NCBI GenBank assembly: GCA_018895235.1
Contig: JAHIOM010000036.1
Coordinates: 1-50,628 of the forward strand
From: Patescibacteria group bacterium
GTDB lineage: Bacteria > Patescibacteriota > Minisyncoccia > Minisyncoccales > Staskawiczbacteraceae
Reading direction: 5' to 3'
Length of the DNA stretch: 50,628 bases
This document shows, piece by piece, positions 23,588 through 42,109 of this stretch (its first letter is position 1; each line of letters opens with the position of its first letter). A model generated the notes under the pieces. That model searched no databases. It was given only the letters and a program-made list of their open reading frames with translations, and had not been told where the DNA came from. The translations under genes were made by a program, and so were the position numbers.

Positions 23588-23610
23588 TAAAAAAAAATGA
23601 AAGAGATGTT

Positions 23611-33153: not shown

Positions 33154-33603
33154 CTAGCCCAATTTCTCTTTAACTAACTTAACCAATTCCGAAGGAGGAC
33201 AATTTGTTTTAATAATATATTTTTCTATGCTAAGGTTCTCGCACTTTTTTTTCAGTTCGGGATTAATGTAGTTAGTAAAAACAAAAACGGGCACCTCTTT
33301 TGTCTTCGCGCTTTGTCTGATCTTTTCTAGAACCTGGGTACCGTCGATATCCGGCAAAATAATGTCTAATAAAATCAGACTGGGCGTTTTCGCGTCTCCC
33401 GCTTCTATTTTTTCAATACACTTTACCATATCTTGACCAAGAGTGAAAGCTTCAACCTTAAAACCGGCGTTTTCTAGGGCGGTTTTATAAACTTCAATTA
33501 TAAGCGTATCATCTTCGACTAAAAATATAAGAACCCCTCGCTTCGCTCGAGAACCTTGATTCGCTGATGTACGATTATATAATCTTGAATTTGTTTTTGG
33601 CAT
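33154..33603 (-). CDS. Single-domain response regulator with a 21-aa repeat-derived N-terminal insert
   Basis: MPKT-[21 aa]-IFLVEDD, LLDIILP, FTN, IK. Confidence 0.85.
   Translation of the reverse strand: MPKTNSRLYNRTSANQGSRAKRGVLIFLVEDDTLIIEVYKTALENAGFKVEAFTLGQDMVKCIEKIEAGDAKTPSLILLDIILPDIDGTQVLEKIRQSAKTKEVPVFVFTNYINPELKKKCENLSIEKYIIKTNCPPSELVKLVKEKLG
33529..33591 (+). repeat. 63-bp family C element, antisense within the response regulator gene
   Basis: AAGAAC..GAGAACCTTGATT-N16-TATAATCTTGAATT. Confidence 0.8.
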
Positions 33604-33934: not shown

Positions 33935-35680
33935 ATGAAAGTTGATCTAAAACAGTTAAAATCGTCGATAATAGAAATGGGACTGCTTAATAAAAAGCAA
34001 TGTGAAGACGCTTCTAAAAGAGCGGAAAAAAACCATCAAAGCTTTGAAGACCTGCTTATTATTGAAGGCCTGATTTCGCAAAATAAACTTTCAAATTTAA
34101 AAGCGTTTATTTTGGGGGTGCCGTTTGTGAATCTAGAAGGGGTGATTATCCTTCCAGAAATTTTAAAAATTATTCCGGAACCGATAGCCAGGACTCACAA
34201 TATTATTGCTTTTAGAAAAGACAGCAACAACTTAGAGGTGGCGATGATTAATCCGGAAGATCTGGCGACAGTCGATTTTATTGGGAAAAAAGCAAACTTA
34301 AGAATATTGCCCCGTCTTACCACGCCCGATAGCATCAAAAACGCCCTAGGGCAATATCAAAAAACTCTTGAAAAAGAATTCGGCAATATTATTAAAAAAG
34401 AAACCGACGATATGTTGATCAAGACAGATGGAAAAAAAGGAGGGGATGAGGAATTGAAGAAGGTGGCCGAAGAGTTGCCGATAATCAAGATAGTGGATAC
34501 CTTGCTCAAACACGCCATATTGCAAGGGGCTTCGGATATTCATATTGAGCCGTCTGAAAAAGAAATGATAGTTCGTTACAGGATTGATGGTATTTTGCGG
34601 GACGTTATGGTTTTGCCGGTACTTATTAATTCCGGAATCGTAGCGAGAATTAAAGTATTATCTAATTTAAAACTGGATGAACACCGCCTTCCGCAAGACG
34701 GAAGGTTTAAATTCGAAAGCGGGGAAGATAATTATTCTGTTCGTGTTTCTATTTTGCCAATTTTTGATGGTGAGAAAATTGTAATGCGTCTTTTGTCAGA
34801 AAACACACAAGCAATTTCCCTAGAACAACTGGGCTTAAGCGGTGCGGCTTTGGATATGGTTGAGGGAAAATTAAGAAAGCCGGTCGGAATGACTTTGGTT
34901 ACGGGTCCAACCGGATCGGGCAAGACAACCACTCTTTATTCGGTGCTTGAAATTTTGAATACTTCCCAAGTGAATATTTCCACTATTGAAGACCCTGTTG
35001 AATACAGAATACCTAGAATCAATCAAACGCAAGTCAATTCTAAAATAGGTCTTACTTTTGCCTCAGGTCTTAGATCATTGGTCAGACAAGACCCGAATGT
35101 TATCATGGTCGGAGAAATACGCGACAACGAAACCGCTTCATTGGCGATTAATGCCAGTTTAACAGGCCACTTGGTTTTATCCACTCTTCACACAATTAGT
35201 GCCGCAGGAGCCATTCCCCGTTTAATTGATATGGAGGTTGAGCCTTTTTTGCTTTCTTCAACCCTAAACATTATTATCGCTCAAAGATTGGTAAGAAAAC
35301 TTTCTTCTAAAAAAGAAAAATACACATTAAAAAACGAGGATTTAAAAAATCTATCCAAATATTGCGATTTAGACAGGGTCTCGCGGGTTTTAAAAGAAGA
35401 AAAAGTAATAAAAACCAAAGACACCATAAAAGATGTTGTTTTTTATCATCCTCAACCCTCGCCAGAATCGCCTGATGGGTATAGCGGAAGAATTGGTATT
35501 TATGAGGTTTTAAATGTTACAGAAACAATAAAAGAGATGATCGTTAAACGCAACACCTCGGACGAAATCCAAGCTCAAGCGCAAAAGGAGGGAATGAAAA
35601 CGATGATTGAGGACGGGTTTGTTAAGGCTGCTCGAGGAATCACCACTATTGAAGAAGTGTTAAGAGTTATTATGGATTAA
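33935..35680 (+). CDS. pilB: Type IV pilus/T2SS assembly ATPase (PilB/GspE family)
   Basis: GPTGSGKTTT, TIEDPVE, LVRQDPNVIMVGEIRD, TGHLVLSTLH. Confidence 0.9.
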   Translation: MKVDLKQLKSSIIEMGLLNKKQCEDASKRAEKNHQSFEDLLIIEGLISQNKLSNLKAFILGVPFVNLEGVIILPEILKIIPEPIARTHNIIAFRKDSNNLEVAMINPEDLATVDFIGKKANLRILPRLTTPDSIKNALGQYQKTLEKEFGNIIKKETDDMLIKTDGKKGGDEELKKVAEELPIIKIVDTLLKHAILQGASDIHIEPSEKEMIVRYRIDGILRDVMVLPVLINSGIVARIKVLSNLKLDEHRLPQDGRFKFESGEDNYSVRVSILPIFDGEKIVMRLLSENTQAISLEQLGLSGAALDMVEGKLRKPVGMTLVTGPTGSGKTTTLYSVLEILNTSQVNISTIEDPVEYRIPRINQTQVNSKIGLTFASGLRSLVRQDPNVIMVGEIRDNETASLAINASLTGHLVLSTLHTISAAGAIPRLIDMEVEPFLLSSTLNIIIAQRLVRKLSSKKEKYTLKNEDLKNLSKYCDLDRVSRVLKEEKVIKTKDTIKDVVFYHPQPSPESPDGYSGRIGIYEVLNVTETIKEMIVKRNTSDEIQAQAQKEGMKTMIEDGFVKAARGITTIEEVLRVIMD

Positions 35681-35690
35681 TAAAGAATAT

Positions 35691-35751
35691 AAGAACATCG
35701 CCTTCGGCGAGAACCTTGATTCGCTAAGGTGTAATTATATAATCTTAAATT
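35691..35751 (+). repeat. Family C element upstream of pilC
   Basis: TTGATT-N16-TATAAT; ATAT on both flanks. Confidence 0.8.
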
Positions 35752-35756
35752 ATATT

Positions 35757-36971
35757 ATGCCGCGCTATTCCTATATCGCAAAAGATTTTAAAGGGAAAAT
35801 AAAATCAGGGATTTTAGAAGCTGAAAATGAATCGGCTCTTACCCAAATCCTCAAAGATAAAGGATATTTTTTGATTAAAACGGACACTGGGACAATTCCT
35901 AAAAAAAGATTTGAGATTCATTTGCCGTTTTTTAATCATATTTCTTTGGTTGAAAAATTAATGTTTACCAACAATCTTCAACTTATGGTTAGCGCTGGAG
36001 TGTCTTTGCCTCGCGCCATCCGTATTTTATCGGAACATACTGAAAACAAAAAATTTAAGAAGATTCTTTGGGAAATTTCAGAAAAAATCACTAAAGGGAA
36101 TAATCTTTCCGAATCTTTGCTGGACTACCCCAATGTCTTTCCTGAGATATTTTTCCGTATGATAGAAGTAGGTGAGGAATCGGGAACATTGGAAAAGGTT
36201 TTAGATATTTTGGCGAAACAAATGGAAAAAGATCACGAATTAAAATCTAGAGTAAGGGGCGCCATGATTTATCCTGCCGTAGTGTTTTCTTTTATGTTTG
36301 TTATTGGTATTGTGATGATGATTATGGTTGTGCCAAAATTTTCAGAAATGTTTAACAGCCTTGGAATTACACTTCCTCTTACTACGCAAATACTCATCTT
36401 TGTCGGAAATTTATTAGCAAATTATTGGTACACGCTTCCAATAATTTTTTGTCTTTTATTCCTATTTTTACGTTTTGCTCTAAAAACGAACTCGGGCAAA
36501 TTATTTTGGGACAAGTGGTCGCTGAAGATCCCCATCATAGGAGGGATTATTAAAAAAACCAACACCACTCAAACAGTAAGAACCCTTGGTTCGCTTATCG
36601 CTTCAGGGATGCCCATTGTTAGATCTTTAGAAATTGTTTCAAAAACCTTGGGAAATATTTATTATAAAAAAGCTATTGCTGAAACCGGGGAAAAGGTGAA
36701 AAAGGGTTCCAGTTTGGCTGCGGCCCTTCAACAATACAAAAATCTTTACCCTCAACTGGTTATTCAAATAACTGAAATTGGAGAAGAAACAGGTAAAACA
36801 TCAGTTGTTTTGGGAAAAATCGCTGAATTCTTTGAAAAAGATATTGACAACATTACTAAAAATTTCTCTTCTATTATAGAACCGTTTTTAATTATCTTTA
36901 TTGGTCTTGCCGTCGGATTTTTCGCTTTATCTATAATCCAACCTCTTTATAGTATGTTGGGTGCAGTATGA
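35757..36971 (+). CDS. pilC: Type IV pilus platform protein (PilC/GspF)
   Basis: GEESGTL, GAMIYP, GEETG, IIEP. Confidence 0.9.
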   Translation: MPRYSYIAKDFKGKIKSGILEAENESALTQILKDKGYFLIKTDTGTIPKKRFEIHLPFFNHISLVEKLMFTNNLQLMVSAGVSLPRAIRILSEHTENKKFKKILWEISEKITKGNNLSESLLDYPNVFPEIFFRMIEVGEESGTLEKVLDILAKQMEKDHELKSRVRGAMIYPAVVFSFMFVIGIVMMIMVVPKFSEMFNSLGITLPLTTQILIFVGNLLANYWYTLPIIFCLLFLFLRFALKTNSGKLFWDKWSLKIPIIGGIIKKTNTTQTVRTLGSLIASGMPIVRSLEIVSKTLGNIYYKKAIAETGEKVKKGSSLAAALQQYKNLYPQLVIQITEIGEETGKTSVVLGKIAEFFEKDIDNITKNFSSIIEPFLIIFIGLAVGFFALSIIQPLYSMLGAV

Positions 36972-37408
36972 AAAACACCAACGCTTTTTCTTTAATAGAA
37001 CTTTTAGTTACTCTAGCGGTTATTTGTATTATAATCGGCATCGCTATTCCTACTTATATAACTCTCAGGCCTGATATTCAGTTAAACGAATCGGCTAGGG
37101 ATTTTATAACCGACCTTCGTTACGCCCAACAAATGACAATAACAGAACAAATTGAATATTGCGCCAAGCTTTTTTTATTAGAAAGAAAATATCAGATACT
37201 TCAGTGCGACCAGAGTATTGTTGTCTTAGAGAAAAAGTTCCCAAACGAAATCATAGACGTCAGTGTTACTGGCTTCAGCAACAACGAAATAAGGTTTAAC
37301 CCTTACGGAGCGGTAAAGGAAAGTGGAAGTATATTTTTAAAAAACACCAAAGATAATATAAAAACCATTGAAGTCAAACCCTCTGGCTTTATAAAGATGG
37401 GGGATTGA
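36968..37408 (+). CDS. FimT/GspH-like minor pilin
   Basis: A|FSLIELL prepilin motif. Confidence 0.8.
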   Translation: MKNTNAFSLIELLVTLAVICIIIGIAIPTYITLRPDIQLNESARDFITDLRYAQQMTITEQIEYCAKLFLLERKYQILQCDQSIVVLEKKFPNEIIDVSVTGFSNNEIRFNPYGAVKESGSIFLKNTKDNIKTIEVKPSGFIKMGD

Positions 37409-37466
37409 CAAAAATGAAAAATTCCGGAAATGAAAAATAAAAAATCTTATCTTCACAACGGGTTTA

Positions 37467-37566
37467 CCCTTCACCTTTTATTTTTTATATGAACCTTAGA
37501 AAAAGTAAAATTAATAAACAATCAAAATATCGCTTTTTTCATAACGCCATTAAAAAAGGTGAAGGG
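37467..37566. mobile_element. MITE-like insertion in the pilin leader
   Basis: 13-bp terminal IR CCCTTCACCTTTT/AAAAGGTGAAGGG; GGGTTTAC duplicated, net 104 bp. Confidence 0.7.
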
Positions 37567-37956
37567 TTTACATTAATTGAATTGCTCGCAACAATTTTTG
37601 TTTTGACAGTTGGAATTTTAGCGATTCTGATTATGTTTCCCTTGGGAACAAAAATAATTAATTCTTCAAAAATGGCGGCAACGGGAATTCAATTAGGACA
37701 AGAAAAGATTGAGGAAATTATCTCTTTGTCTTACGAAGCGATTTCTGTGGAAGAAAATATTGAAGCCGAACTGCCTTCGCCATTCATTTATTATAGGCGT
37801 GAAACGCGAATAACTTATGTTGACCCATCATTAAATCTTCAGGAAATCAGCACTGATAAAGGGGTAAAAAAAGTGGAGGTTACGGTCTCTTGGCAGTCGT
37901 CTTTAGTAACAAGCAGAAAAAGCGTTGAATTAACGACCATCATCAGTAAAAAATAG
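37489..37956 (+). CDS. PilV-like minor pilin with leader rebuilt by an insertion
   Basis: G|FTLIELL; orphaned ancestral-looking leader MKNKKSYLHNGFT at 37430-37468. Confidence 0.8.
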   Translation: MNLRKSKINKQSKYRFFHNAIKKGEGFTLIELLATIFVLTVGILAILIMFPLGTKIINSSKMAATGIQLGQEKIEEIISLSYEAISVEENIEAELPSPFIYYRRETRITYVDPSLNLQEISTDKGVKKVEVTVSWQSSLVTSRKSVELTTIISKK

Positions 37957-37974
37957 AAATAACAAGCCATTTAT

Positions 37975-38028
37975 ATAATTACTTCATTCGGTCGTCCGCC
38001 CTAGGCGGGTTTCCTCATTCGTAATTAT
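37975..38028. repeat. Short element with terminal IR ATAATTAC/GTAATTAT
   Basis: Internal CCGCC-CTA-GGCGG hairpin and TCATTCG direct repeat; right end overlaps ATG 38027. Confidence 0.55.
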
Positions 38029-38911
38029 GAAAAAACTGCTTTTTGGGGAAAAATTAAATAAGGAATTTACCCCGGTTGAATGCCAGCGGGCAATTCCGCC
38101 AAAGCGGAATTATTCAACTGGGTTTACGCTCACAGAAATCATTATTGTCACCGCAATTTTTACGATAATTGCTGGAGTTATTTTTTCAGCTATTATTTAC
38201 AGCCAAAAATCCTATGCGCTCGGAGGGAACGTCGCCCAAAGCATCCAAAACGGCAGGGTAATTATAGAAAGAATATCAAGGGAAATCCGTCAGGCAAAAA
38301 AAATTATTACCCCTTTGCCGGAGGAAAGAATTAACCCTTCCGGTGAAATTAATTTCCAGGACGGCCACCTGTTAGAGATTTTGGAAGAAGACCAGGCACA
38401 AGGAGGAAGTAATAATACAATTACCCTGTCTTTAAACGCCCAGAATAGCAATGATTATTACAAAGATTTTTTTATTAAAATAATAAGCGGCTCTGGAAGC
38501 GAACAAATAAGAAAGATTACAAATTATGACGGGATTTCAAAAACAGCGCAGGTAGACCAAAATTGGACAATTACTCCGGATGTTACCTCGTTTTATAAAA
38601 TAGACAGTTCTTTTTATTACATCCATTACTATCGCGACGCAAATAATAATATTTTAAGGAAGGTGACTACCTGCTGTTTTTCAGAGGACTTTTTAACATG
38701 CGTTTCCCCCGAAACCTACGTTTCTTGTATTGCAACTCCGCCGGAGAACCAGACCCTTTTGGAAATAGCTTTGGAATCTCCCAGAATAATTGGCGAATAC
38801 GTCAGTAATTTGGAATTTTACGGCGCAAGAGTCATTAATATCTTTATGGAACTGAATATAAAAAACCAAACTATGCAATTAGAAACCAAAATATTCGGCA
38901 GAAATTTATGA
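38027..38911 (+). CDS. PilW-like minor pilin with in-frame palindrome in the leader
   Basis: EFT-PVECQRAIPPKRNYSTG-FTLTEII. Confidence 0.8.
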   Translation: MKKLLFGEKLNKEFTPVECQRAIPPKRNYSTGFTLTEIIIVTAIFTIIAGVIFSAIIYSQKSYALGGNVAQSIQNGRVIIERISREIRQAKKIITPLPEERINPSGEINFQDGHLLEILEEDQAQGGSNNTITLSLNAQNSNDYYKDFFIKIISGSGSEQIRKITNYDGISKTAQVDQNWTITPDVTSFYKIDSSFYYIHYYRDANNNILRKVTTCCFSEDFLTCVSPETYVSCIATPPENQTLLEIALESPRIIGEYVSNLEFYGARVINIFMELNIKNQTMQLETKIFGRNL

Positions 38912-40404
38912 TAAGAAACCAGCGGAAAAAAGGAACTATTCTAATTTCCGAGCGAAGCGAGAAAACAAGATTCTGCCAAATAGAGAGAGGCACGGCTCTT
39001 ATTATCGCTTTTTTGGCAATGAGTATACTTTTTATCTTGGGCTCGTATTTGCTGGTTTTTACTTTAACTGATTTTAAAATATCAAAAAGCCAGAAATCGG
39101 GAATTAAAACATATTACTTGGCAGAAGCCGGAATAAATGAGGCGATTTGGAAACTAAAAAATGATGACACCACATCCGACGGCGACAGCGCCTGGAAGCT
39201 CGACTTTATTGATTTAAATAAAAACCCTTATCCTGATGGAAGTTACTGGCAAGCATCTTTTTCCCGCGACTTCGGCGGCGGTTCTTATGCGATTACCATT
39301 AAAAATATTAGTCGGGGCAAAGGCGAAATAATTTCTACTGCCATCCTGTCTCTTCCTGAAAGTAAAACCAGCCGCAGAGTTGTAAAAACTACTGTTTTTA
39401 AGGCGCTTGCGAGCCCGGTAAAAGACAGCGCTGTTTTTACCGGCGGTCCCAGCGAGAATATTAACATTAACTTCAGCAATGTAAAAGTGGATAAGGGTAA
39501 TCTTTTTTCAAATAATAATTTAAATATTTTTTTCAGCACAATAGGGGTTTACGATGACCCTAAGACAGAGGATATTTTGGAGGGACAAATTTGGGCGGCT
39601 AATAATTATATTAATATTTCCAGCTCAATAACCGCCCAGGCAATATGCGCAAAAAACTCTTGTACTCTAAAGTGTCCCGATTATACTCTCGGTGAAACAA
39701 AATGCCCGCCAGCCTCTGTTTCTGTTCCTGTGGTTGATTTTGATTCTGCAAGCCCTCATTCTTTTAAAAGCAGGGCTCAGGCGGCTGAAAATTCCGGGCA
39801 ATGCCAGGCGCTTTGCAACGGAATCCCGTGTTCTAACCAGTGTGTTTATTCGACAAACGAATTTGAAGATATTTTGTGGCAAGCAGGACAGGGAGGAACC
39901 TTAACATTGAATAACGTTATTACTTATGTTACGGGTTTTGTTGATATAAAAGGAGGCCGTTATGTTATAGTTAATGGTTCTTTGGTAGTTGATGATAACG
40001 TTTATATCGGGGAAAGATATTCTTGGACGCGGCAGGGGAAAAAGGATAGCGGATTTTCCCAAATAACCGTAAATAGTCCTGGAGAAAACCTGCCCTCTGG
40101 AATTTTGACTAAAAGAAAAATAAATTTCGGATTGTATTGCGCCTTTCAGGAAATAAATATTACGGGCGTAATTTATGCTAATGACGAAATAAGAATAATC
40201 AGTGTTCCAACACCTTTTAACGTCGTAGGCGGAATAATCGGCAGAAAACTGTCCCTAACAAGTGTGTGGCAGTGGTTAAACATTGTTTTAAATAATGATA
40301 TAATTATATATGGTCTGGGCTATAAGATAGATGATGCTCCCGTCAGCCCGGACTCAACATTCTCTCCGGTAATCACAATAGATCATTGGGAGGAAAGTTA
40401 CTAA
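38908..40404 (+). CDS. PilX-like protein
   Basis: G(T)ALII start, TYYLAEAGINEA, HWEE end. Confidence 0.75.
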   Translation: MIRNQRKKGTILISERSEKTRFCQIERGTALIIAFLAMSILFILGSYLLVFTLTDFKISKSQKSGIKTYYLAEAGINEAIWKLKNDDTTSDGDSAWKLDFIDLNKNPYPDGSYWQASFSRDFGGGSYAITIKNISRGKGEIISTAILSLPESKTSRRVVKTTVFKALASPVKDSAVFTGGPSENININFSNVKVDKGNLFSNNNLNIFFSTIGVYDDPKTEDILEGQIWAANNYINISSSITAQAICAKNSCTLKCPDYTLGETKCPPASVSVPVVDFDSASPHSFKSRAQAAENSGQCQALCNGIPCSNQCVYSTNEFEDILWQAGQGGTLTLNNVITYVTGFVDIKGGRYVIVNGSLVVDDNVYIGERYSWTRQGKKDSGFSQITVNSPGENLPSGILTKRKINFGLYCAFQEINITGVIYANDEIRIISVPTPFNVVGGIIGRKLSLTSVWQWLNIVLNNDIIIYGLGYKIDDAPVSPDSTFSPVITIDHWEESY

Positions 40405-40422
40405 TTGCGGTTTCTTAAATTT

Positions 40423-41538
40423 ATGTTTAATTCTTTAAATATAAATCCAACGGCATTTGGCCTGGATGTCTCTAATTCATCTATAAAAATTATCCAACTT
40501 AAAAAAAGCGGGAAGCTTTTTAAATTAGTTTCCTGGGGGGAAACGCAAATAGAGCCAGGTGTGATTGAAAATGGAGAAATAAAAAACGAAGATAAATTTC
40601 TTGGACTTTTGAAGCAGGCAATAAGAAATGTCAAAGGGAAAAAAATAAAAACAAAGAACGCCGTTGTCTCCTTATTGGAGAAAAAAACATTCTTAGGGAT
40701 AATCCAACTGCCAATGATGACAAAAGAAGAACTGCGGTCCGCTATTACATTCCAAGCAGAGAACTATATTCCTTTACCTATAAATGAAGTATATTTTGAT
40801 TTTCAAGTTATCCCGCTTGATTCAAAAATTAAAGATCGCTGTGACGTTCTATTAATTGCTTTCCCTAAAAAAATCATAGATCAGTATCTGACAATTTTTA
40901 AAAAAGCCGGTATTTTACCCATAGCGCTTGAAACTGAATCTCAAGCGATAACCCGCGTTTTATCAAAAAACAATGCAGAGGGTTCTTCCTTTTTTGTGAT
41001 TAATTTTGGTAAAAGCAACACGATTTTTGCGGCATTTTCAGATCACTCGCTACACTTCAGTTCATCAATACCAATCTCTTCGCAAGACCTAACAAAAGCC
41101 ATCTCTCAGTCGCTTAAAGTTAAACTAGAAGAAGCGGAAAAATTAAAATTAAAATACGGCTTAAGGGCTTCTCAAGGTTCTAAAAAAGAGGGAGAAGAAG
41201 TTTCCAAAGCGATAGAGCCGATTTTTAACGATTTATGTAAGCAAGTAAAAAAATACATCAGTTATTATCGAACTTACGGTTATCCTGAATATTCGAATGC
41301 TGACGAAAATAATACAAAAAGCAAAAAAATAGAAAAAATTATTCTTTGCGGAGAAGGAGCAAACCTAAGGGGACTACACGATTTCTTCTCCTCGAGATTG
41401 GAAATACCGATAAAATTAGCGAATCCATGGTTAAATATTTTTAAAAAAGAAAGCGTTAGCCTGCCGTTAAAGGAGCCGCTGGGGTATGTTGTTGCTTTAG
41501 GGTTAGCCCTGAGAATAACGGAAAAAAATTATGATTAA
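40423..41538 (+). CDS. pilM: Type IV pilus assembly protein PilM
   Basis: FGLDVSNSSIK, EVYFDFQV, GEGANL, ALGLALR. Confidence 0.9.
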   Translation: MFNSLNINPTAFGLDVSNSSIKIIQLKKSGKLFKLVSWGETQIEPGVIENGEIKNEDKFLGLLKQAIRNVKGKKIKTKNAVVSLLEKKTFLGIIQLPMMTKEELRSAITFQAENYIPLPINEVYFDFQVIPLDSKIKDRCDVLLIAFPKKIIDQYLTIFKKAGILPIALETESQAITRVLSKNNAEGSSFFVINFGKSNTIFAAFSDHSLHFSSSIPISSQDLTKAISQSLKVKLEEAEKLKLKYGLRASQGSKKEGEEVSKAIEPIFNDLCKQVKKYISYYRTYGYPEYSNADENNTKSKKIEKIILCGEGANLRGLHDFFSSRLEIPIKLANPWLNIFKKESVSLPLKEPLGYVVALGLALRITEKNYD

Positions 41539-42109
41539 TCTTTTACCACCGAAAGCAAAAGAGGAAATTTTACTGGAAAGAAAAAAAAGAGTGGTTTTGT
41601 CAAATTGGATTTTAGTCCTGTTGTTTTTTGTATTTTTGCTTTCCGCGATGTTTTTAATAAAATTTTATTTGCAAATACAAACAACTTATTTAAAAGCGCA
41701 ATTAGTAACCAACAAGCAAATTTTAGAGAGAAATATGAATGAAGAAATTCTCAATAAGATTAATCTATTTGATTCCTCTTTTGAAGAATTAAACGCTTTT
41801 TATAGACAAAGAATATATATTTCTGAGGTTTTAGCAAAAATTTCCCGACTACTTCCTAATACGGTGTATCTGACAAATTTTTTTGTTTCTCCAAATTTGG
41901 TGCTTGAGAATAATGATGATGAATTAAACCAACTGGTTGGTTTTAATATCTATGTTGCCGGATTCTCGCCAACAAGGGAAGAAGTGCTTCAACTTAAGGC
42001 GAATATGGAGAAGGAGGAGGATTTTAAAGAGGTTTTCTTCCCCCTGACGAATTGGGTAAAAACAACGAACATTGACTTTTCTTTAAGTTTTAAAGTTATA
42101 AAGCCATGA
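41531..42109 (+). CDS. pilN: PilN-like protein
   Basis: MINLLP start, TM segment, operon position. Confidence 0.75.
   Translation: MINLLPPKAKEEILLERKKRVVLSNWILVLLFFVFLLSAMFLIKFYLQIQTTYLKAQLVTNKQILERNMNEEILNKINLFDSSFEELNAFYRQRIYISEVLAKISRLLPNTVYLTNFFVSPNLVLENNDDELNQLVGFNIYVAGFSPTREEVLQLKANMEKEEDFKEVFFPLTNWVKTTNIDFSLSFKVIKP

Follow-up and report, generated by a model that had tools for sequence, protein, structure and literature searches.

We analysed a 50,628-nucleotide stretch of DNA (hereafter the window) from a Patescibacteria group bacterium (Staskawiczbacteraceae; NCBI GenBank assembly GCA_018895235.1, contig JAHIOM010000036.1, positions 1 to 50,628 of the forward strand), in which three consecutive pilin-like genes of a type IV pilus operon carry short insertions at the prepilin cleavage site. 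All together, the data make it probable (about 0.8) that these inserts are three non-autonomous elements from three multi-copy families (A, B and C), which inserted independently after the split from relatives of about 80% identity and which persist as tolerated selfish DNA. In what follows, G000 is the source genome, C-numbers are its contigs (the window being C36), P-numbers are protein homologues and L-numbers are loci or contigs; a caret marks the predicted point of prepilin cleavage. The inserts and the genes in which they lie are the following.

37430..37492, + strand: old pilV leader, now a 20-codon mini open reading frame (mini-ORF; MKNKKSYLHNGFTLHLLFFI followed by a stop), homologous to the intact leaders of empty orthologues
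37463..37466, + strand: left TTTA of the insert (a) target duplication
37467..37566, + strand: insert (a), family-A element of 100 nt with ends CCCTTCACCTTTT...AAAAGGTGAAGGG; ATG 37489 lies within it, and it encodes the new leader MNLRKSKINKQSKYRFFHNAIKKGEG
37567..37570, + strand: right TTTA of insert (a), which with the GGG of the element restores GGG TTT ACA, i.e. G^FT
37489..37956, + strand: pilV-like prepilin in its present form (Pfam N_methyl, orthologues), with a 26-aa leader followed by FTLIELL
38027..38911, + strand: pilW-like prepilin (Pfam N_methyl), with a 32-aa leader ending ..YSTG, then FTLTEIIIV
38066..38069, + strand: TTTA left of insert (b); this may be a target duplication or else the canonical end of the element itself
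38070..38122, + strand: insert (b), a nested hairpin of 53 nt whose outer stem, CCCCGGTTGAAT/ATTCAACTGGG, encloses two inner hairpins; translated as (T)PVECQRAIPPKRNYSTG
38123..38126, + strand: TTTA right of insert (b), giving GGG TTT ACG, i.e. G^FT
38908..40404, + strand: pilX/GspK-like minor pilin (assigned by homologues), whose orthologues read ..QKG^TILLIAFL..
about 38943..38999, + strand: insert (c), a decayed family-C element of 57 nt, TTTCCGAGCGAAGCGAGAAAA-CAAGATTCT-GCC..GGCAC-GGCTCT, whose right end codes RG^TAL

A preliminary description of this DNA had placed palindromic inserts at these three positions and had proposed a search for empty alleles among orthologues. That comparison supports the placement, as empty sites were found for the pilV-, pilW- and pilX-like genes alike, in orthologues at 72-86% identity.

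Specifically, insert (a) adds a net 104 nt to the pilV-like gene and is bounded by a terminal inverted repeat of 13-15 nt (CCCTTCACCTTTT/AAAAGGTGAAGGG), its junctions reading AAC GGG TTTA / CCCTTCACCTTTT...AAAAGGTGAAGGG / TTTA CA TTA ATT GAA, with GGGTTTAC present at both 37460 and 37564. Since 104 is not a multiple of three, the old leader frame is broken; it stops at TGA 37490-37492, which overlaps the new start codon ATG 37489 (ATGA). Deleting the 104 nt restores MKNKKSYLHNG^FTLIELL, to be compared with MKNKKSNLGNG^FTLIEL in the empty orthologue P0076 (85% identity, 140 aa). Further empty alleles were found in P0079 (MQNKKYYLYGG^FTLIES), in P0081-P0083 and at L014 and L015, where the neighbouring genes follow the order of the window. 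The net gain, the frameshift, the new start and the rebuilt G^FT had all been described before, and on each of them the sequence and the empty orthologues agree. The insert folds at -23 kcal/mol (z = -4.15 against shuffled sequences), with ATG 37489 inside a loop closed by a 14-bp stem. In addition, a second 100-nt copy, 88% identical to insert (a), occupies the GFT codons of an unrelated pilin gene (C8:34626-34725); the two copies share the ATGA stop-restart arrangement, and their flanks are without similarity.

In the pilW-like gene, insert (b) reads AAG GAA TTTA / CCCCGGTTGAAT GCCAGCGGGC AATTCCGCCAAAGCGGAATT ATTCAACTGGG / TTTA CG CTC, a net gain of 57 nt in frame, and folds at -28.5 kcal/mol (z = -5.04 against shuffled sequences). 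The in-frame gain had been reported correctly; the resemblance to family A had not, since the hairpin belongs to the CCCCG(G)TTAAAT family, here called family B. The empty alleles P0002-P0006 are each 275 aa long, that is 294 minus 19, as in MRKMLFKEKLNKG^FTLTEIIIV, and these five orthologues read ..N[KRT]G^FTL[TV]E.. at the site. The corresponding DNA at L015 is AGAGGATTTACGCTCACA, with AGA GGA TTT ACG CTC ACA at the site itself. The Gly codon upstream of insert (b) has become GAA (Glu), a decay that would be expected once that codon no longer marks the cleavage site. At this same position the window and its nearest relative, P0001, hold different family-B elements, and P0002 is empty.

Insert (c) is a decayed copy, and its limits can be placed to within about 5 nt (38938-38994 or 38943-38999). 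It is in frame, its 19 residues ILISERSEKTRFCQIERGT are absent from all 119 listed PilX homologues (..KG[TV][IV]LLI[AT]FL..), and its right end, GGC ACG GCT CTT, rebuilds G^TAL of the GspK/PilX type. Alignment to the two-hairpin form of family C at C19:15280-15365 gave a score of 52, against 16 +/- 3 for shuffled sequences. The 19-residue insertion stands as first described; its palindromic character was rejected for the present sequence, which folds no better than shuffled (z = +0.56).

The right ends thus recreate the Gly of the cleavage site, as had been proposed. For families A and B the downstream junction is always GGG TTY ACN, whatever the original Gly codon, because the GGG end of the element is followed by the repeated TTYA and the product reads Gly^Phe-Thr. 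The duplication had been given as TTTAC; four nucleotides of it (TTYA) are upheld, whereas the fifth base, C, is part of the Thr codon. A duplication of 5 to 8 nt, or an IS608-like TTAC target, was rejected, since the fifth base is not the same in copies outside pilin genes (C13, C40) and since the two flanks of the copy at L003 have changed together to TTCA.

This cleavage site is hit repeatedly in other lineages, as shown by a maximum-likelihood tree of 54 PilW homologues, the query included. Long leaders occur in 11 of the 54 sequences, the remaining 43 being empty. In nine of the 11 the motif is doubled: family A gives GFT-LHLF...KGEG-FT and family B GFT-PL...LTG-FT. Filled alleles turn up in scattered positions on the tree, whose well-supported branches require no fewer than 7 independent changes between the filled and the empty state, and four of these alleles have an empty sister (P0037/P0033, P0015/P0011, P0024/P0020 and P0047/P0053, filled allele first). 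DNA was compared for six filled lineages, and all hold CCC...GGG elements of 35-110 nt, all in frame: family A of 65 nt at L017 and L020, and family B of 59, 35, 35 and 110 nt at L014, L019, L003 and L021, respectively. All six junctions are bordered by TTYA, save for single-base differences at L020 (TTTG/TTTA) and L014 (TTTA/TTTG). The 35-nt copy at L003, in the GTDB genome G036 from another family of the order, has TTCA on both sides.

The prepilin sites of G000 itself point in the same direction. Three of its eight Phe-Thr prepilin sites are filled, and about 12 leader windows of 60 nt contain 4 inserts, compared with 0.05 expected under a uniform distribution (P = 3e-7) and 0.43 if insertions were confined to non-coding DNA (P = 1e-3).

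Nine copies of family A (arms CCCTTCACCTTT/AAAGGTGAAGGG) are present in G000, among them 28-nt copies made of the two arms alone; conservation is limited to the arms of 12-15 nt, and different copies have unrelated interiors. One copy lies in frame near the N-terminus of acetate kinase (AckA; gene at C20:20663-21715, - strand), as PSPLTKGEG. Its target was reconstructed from metagenome contigs scanned for the arms and not selected by pilin homology (80 loci, L025-L104). Perfect 4-bp direct repeats of varying sequence flank the element at 31 non-redundant sites, and 4-bp direct repeats also flank most G000 copies. Taken together, the 31 sites give T-T-(G 23 / T 7)-A-(C 22), in many cases extended to TTGACA, which identifies family A as a duplication-making element with a preference for a -35-like pentamer. 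A preference of family A for the pilin sequence is not supported by this unbiased sample: the favoured target is TTGAC(A), and TTT-ACN (Phe-Thr), one base away from TTGAC, is a minority near-cognate. Pilin GFT codons account for 3 of the 31 sites; a fourth pilin site, L057, has an imperfect repeat, and there the old -1 residue, Ser, has been changed to Gly by the GGG of the element.

We also observed that the copies at L041 and L057, both of 65 nt, lie in frame at cleavage sites resembling those of major pilins (GFTLAEILIV.. and GFTLIELLVV..). In addition, TTGAC(A) is the sigma70 -35 hexamer, and an intact TTGACA is left on one side after insertion (for example at C8:7631-7715, C10:62025-62109 and C13:1829-1926); promoters may thus survive a family-A insertion as the pilin cleavage site does. 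When the right junction plus TTYAC was used as a pattern against 301 species genomes of the order, only G000 matched; family A is thus missing from the order's representative genomes, and the informative relatives come from metagenomes. Human-gut sequences with family-A arms (L027, L031, L032, L036 and others) were set aside as a probably unrelated hairpin, as they measure 53 nt, lack duplications and carry additional CCCTTCAC repeats outside the arms.

Family B, CCCCG(G)TTAAAT...ATTTAAC(T/G)GGG, has about 20 copies in G000. A typical copy reads TTTAC-CC(G/A)GTTAAAT-[one or two variable hairpins]-ATTTAAC(T/C)GGG-TGAA, and copies are regularly bordered by TTYA/TNNA; the pilin-site copies have TTYA on both sides, and in typical copies TTTA...TGAA forms an extended inverted repeat. 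Two copies are translated in frame within unrelated proteins, in both cases in the same frame (IHPVKS...QFNR(V/I)): in MnmA (C19:12940-14115) the element supplies residues 225-242, between the HUP domain (ending at 220) and the PRC-barrel (starting at 246), and in FtsZ (C16:1131-2648, - strand) residues 416-429 of the C-terminal linker. Six further genes have their 3' end within a family-B copy, from which they take their final codons and the stop, with tails such as ..FTQLNKI, ..KFSSS and ..NSPS (C10:63972-65462, C12:8464-8856, C12:12153-13445, C38:15959-16570 and C11:25770-26399, all on the - strand, and C19:10658-12289), and in all six the orientation of the element relative to the gene is identical.

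A scan of species genomes for family-B arms returned at least 120 stretches, of which 80 loci (L119-L198) are listed. The matches listed come from Desulfobacterota, Gammaproteobacteria, Bacteroidota, Cloacimonadota, Bdellovibrionales and several classes of Patescibacteria. Specifically, the CCCCGTTAAAT...ATTTAACGGGG hairpin occurs with the same arms in at least 5 phyla outside the candidate phyla radiation (CPR) and in several CPR classes (in G000, for example, at C11:25728-25777 and C19:13612-13665). Across these hits the architecture is alike, the TTTA...TGAA flanks often recur with a conserved T.G position, and the interiors are variable hairpins. One Parcubacteria contig, L135, has two copies in frame (..HPVKSG.AGA.QFNGVN.., the MnmA/FtsZ frame), in a glycosyltransferase and a membrane protein. 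None of the 80 listed loci is a pilin-site copy. For family B, therefore, few of all copies lie at the pilin site, although as a single site it is heavily used. Two known recombination sites were considered and dismissed: an integron attC site needs RYYYAAC 5' and GTTRRRY 3', and family B has the reverse, GTTAAAT...ATTTAAC; a dif/Xer site was ruled out on motif order and orientation.

Family C, [TTAGCGAATC]AAGGTTCT-[GC hairpin]-GGTTCTTA, has about 30 copies in G000, including a tandem array with a 66-nt period at C7:85876-86043 that resembles a cluster of bacterial interspersed mosaic elements (BIMEs). Copies in the window lie at 23610, 31085, 31207, 33528-33557, 33794 and 35690; one window copy is translated in the 5' end of a response-regulator ORF (..NQGSRAKRGVLI..) and another fills the pilB-pilC spacer. 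The element families thus also occupy intergenic sites, and the view that they survive only in a leader that is removed after translation is not sustained, as the same families are found in MnmA, FtsZ, AckA, the response regulator, at stop codons and between genes.

On these grounds we propose the following course of events. The family-A and family-B elements of (a) and (b), both of which end CCC...GGG with TTYA on each side, lie at GGN TTY ACN codons. Where the element plus 4 nt is a multiple of three (the net gain in (b) and (c) being in frame), it would be read through as extra leader; in (a), ribosomes ending the old leader at TGA would restart at the overlapping ATG 37489 and produce a prepilin with a 26-residue, Lys-rich leader. 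The prepilin peptidase would then cut at the rebuilt Gly, which adjoins the hydrophobic helix, and so remove the residues contributed by the insert. The inserts would be nearly neutral and would persist because the mature pilins are unchanged after removal of the leader. Prepilins of type IVb have leaders of 15-30 residues ending in Gly, which are cut by prepilin peptidase with Gly(-1) as the main determinant, and leaders of 26 and 32 residues are for this reason plausible substrates. Two factors may explain the recurrence: TTTAC is near the TTGAC of family A, and family B is bordered by TTYA/TNNA; and in a gene-dense genome, with few tolerant positions, purifying selection would spare these. 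We count as support that the one pilin of the operon that lacks an insert reads TTT TCT in place of TTT ACN.

Several observations weigh against this proposal. For family B, the TTYA repeat at the pilin site, judged by its letters, is indistinguishable from the canonical TTYA left terminus of the element. In G000, pilin sites account for half of the TTYA-flanked insertions, compared with thousands of TTYA sites available in non-coding DNA; this excess exceeds what target preference plus simple tolerance obviously predict, and positive selection may contribute. In-frame lengths are partly inherited within subfamilies, so that they are not fully independent evidence. Cleavage of the leaders, restart at ATG 37489 and expression of the genes are read from sequence and are likewise to be taken as predicted. 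Finally, a transposase with matching ends was not found in the draft genome, which gave no hit to PF01609 or PF13359 (other transposase families were not searched).

The strength of the folds in (a) and (b) (-23 and -28.5 kcal/mol, z = -4.2 and -5.0) would also fit inserts that are useful to the cell, the mRNA hairpins setting the relative translation or stability of each cistron, the stop-restart of (a) throttling PilV and the long leaders slowing processing. The position of ATG 37489 in its stem-closed loop, the ATGA overlap conserved in both 100-nt copies, the occurrence of three different families in three adjacent genes and an occupancy of the pilW site of about 10% of lineages, far above the per-site average for TTYA, are all compatible with such a function. 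We nevertheless regard it as unlikely: most orthologues, the closest included, are empty, the fillers vary in family, length and interior between lineages, the fold of (c) has been lost, the same families sit in unrelated genes and spacers, and the Gly codon upstream of (b) has decayed as neutral sequence does. These last signs of decay in (b) and (c), which point to old, fixed inserts, also speak against a reversible switch, in which precise excision and re-insertion at the duplicated TTYA would toggle or alter the minor pilins within a population. Close alleles do differ both in filled or empty state and in the element present (the query, P0001 and P0002), and direct repeats at the junctions would permit clean loss. 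However, the filled alleles keep an open frame, so that the gene is not switched off. Moreover, identical insert alleles were recovered on contigs assembled from four groundwater metagenome runs of at least 3 studies (one run possibly being the source sample of the assembly); all are filled, with no joints skipping the inserts, although contigs hide rare variants. A switch of this kind is in our judgement very unlikely.

The recurrence of identical sequence in contigs from several runs bears equally on the idea that the long leaders are artefacts of assembly, the genome being a 40-contig metagenome bin, or that they are ancestral and were deleted in relatives, for which the junction repeats could provide the means. 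Here the family of each insert has copies at unrelated loci, the old short pilV leader is still recognisable upstream, and the site is empty in 43 of 54 PilW and 119 of 119 PilX homologues; we find this account hardly credible. Within the reading of the inserts as tolerated selfish DNA, a more specific version can be put forward tentatively, namely that some elements have adapted to class III signal peptides and that the 100-nt subfamily of family A is a leader cassette that can be carried from gene to gene. This subfamily, present in two unrelated pilin genes, brings a stop for the incoming frame, an overlapping restart, a Lys-rich leader and a GGG end by which the cleavage site is rebuilt. 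If this were true, prepilin peptidase would play the role that self-splicing has for inteins and introns, by removing the product of the parasite, and the Gly-Phe-Thr motif would serve, in streamlined genomes, as a safe landing pad dedicated to mobile DNA. The Gly-Phe-Thr motif is conserved in almost all type IV pilins.

Since the elements are multi-copy and lie in frame in mnmA, ftsZ, ackA and the response-regulator gene, they are selfish DNA of the Rickettsia palindromic element (RPE) type and not pilin-specific devices. RPEs are in-frame palindromic repeats in protein genes that are translated as an extra peptide (Ogata et al. 2000, as summarised in PMC10969869). The likeness is one of behaviour: in both cases short palindromic repeats of a reduced genome lie in frame in unrelated genes, where the fold tolerates them, and here such in-frame copies were found in MnmA, FtsZ, AckA, the response regulator, the pilins and the two L135 genes. 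In contrast, the host (Patescibacteria) is unrelated and the sequence probably so, the elements measure 26-110 nt instead of about 100-150 nt, and three families reside together. They also land at a proteolytic processing site, so that the peptide would be removed and not retained, and one subfamily brings its own start codon. As for type IVb prepilins, the long leader is vertically inherited there, whereas here its extra length consists of repeat DNA that was inserted recently and that close orthologues lack.

Family A in particular resembles the bacterial MITEs (miniature transposable elements with inverted repeats; Correia/NEMIS, ERIC and BOX; PMC10969869) in its terminal inverted repeats, fixed 4-bp target duplication and target preference, and in being multi-copy without coding capacity for a transposase. 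It differs in that only the 12-15-nt arms are conserved, the minimal form is 28 nt and TTGAC is preferred. Nor did an autonomous partner come to light: the family-A arm hits of G000 include no widely spaced inverted pairs, and the draft genome has no PF01609 or PF13359 hit. Repetitive extragenic palindromes (REP/REPIN) and palindromes derived from IS200/IS605 are comparable as short hairpin repeats, in view of the single HUH Y1 transposase and the BIME-like family-C array. The sole transposase found, by a PF01797 search, is an IS200/IS605-type Y1 enzyme (C11:68206-68568, - strand; L013), which scores 111 bits with NF033573 (IS200) and 28.6 bits, against a cut-off of 80, with NF047646 (the REP-associated tyrosine transposase, RAYT). 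On either side of its gene lie GC-rich CCCCGCC..GGCGGGG hairpins that do not resemble families A-C, and the gene is preceded by CCTTAC. We set this enzyme aside as the mobiliser, as its own flanking hairpins differ and Y1 transposition, in contrast to family A, produces no target duplications; with the RAYT score below cut-off and such flanks, the elements were not assigned to the REP/REPIN-RAYT group. Rfam at gathering score found only two tRNAs in the window, and nothing credible in 37300-39100 at E <= 10.

In-frame palindromic selfish DNA is already known. What is new is its recurrent landing on a proteolytic processing site that the element ends rebuild automatically, a subfamily with its own restart codon and leader, and the presence of three families in three adjacent genes; a literature search on prepilin, leader peptide and MITE returned no paper describing selfish DNA at a processing site. 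This would be a route to persistence in which the processing machinery of the host erases the product of the insert. For annotation, long or doubled GFT...GFT leaders and upstream mini-ORFs in Patescibacteria are to be read as insertion scars and not as novel signal peptides, and the start codons of such pilin genes can be miscalled. Type IV pili are central to the host attachment of these episymbionts, and the filled and empty alleles provide a natural experiment on the leader length and sequence that prepilin peptidase tolerates. In addition, the allele pairs and the target logo (TTGAC, 4-bp duplication) bear on the transposition mechanism of an uncharacterised family, and the data connect as well with a hairpin family whose arms are the same across many phyla.

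G000 comprises 837 kb in 40 contigs, with 36% G+C. Its type IV pilus operon extends from 33935 to 42109 in the window and, besides the three genes listed above, contains the following.

33935-35680: PilB (T2SSE, Pfam)
35757-36971: PilC (T2SSF, Pfam)
36968..37408, + strand: GspH-like prepilin (Pfam N_methyl and GspH), the sole pilin of the operon without an insert
40405-41538: PilM
41531-42109: a further ORF, 3' of PilM

The prepilins at 36968, 37489 and 38027 score above the cut-off for PF07963 (class III signal peptide motif G^F-T-L-x-E followed by a hydrophobic helix). The cleavage site of the GspH-like protein is A^FSLIEL (GCT TTT TCT TTA), which contains no TTYAC. The pilX-like gene gave no Pfam hit; its homologues read KG^T/V-hydrophobic, two of them are named PilX in their source and one carries PF14341. 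The pilW-like gene has 74 homologues, one named a PilW family protein in its source, and the source names of the pilin homologues include Parcubacteria, Patescibacteria and Nealsonbacteria. A prepilin peptidase gene (Peptidase_A24) is present in G000 at C8:32995-33330.

The spacer between the pilV- and pilW-like genes (37987..38029, + strand) is itself a hairpin slot, CATTCGGTCG-[TCCGCCCTAGGCGGG]-TTTCCTCATTCGTAATT. Its frame, CATTCGGTCG...TTCCTCATTCGTAATT, is conserved, with a different hairpin inside in the window, in L014 and in L015, and a look-alike of the slot with 4 mismatches was observed on other contigs from the same metagenomes.

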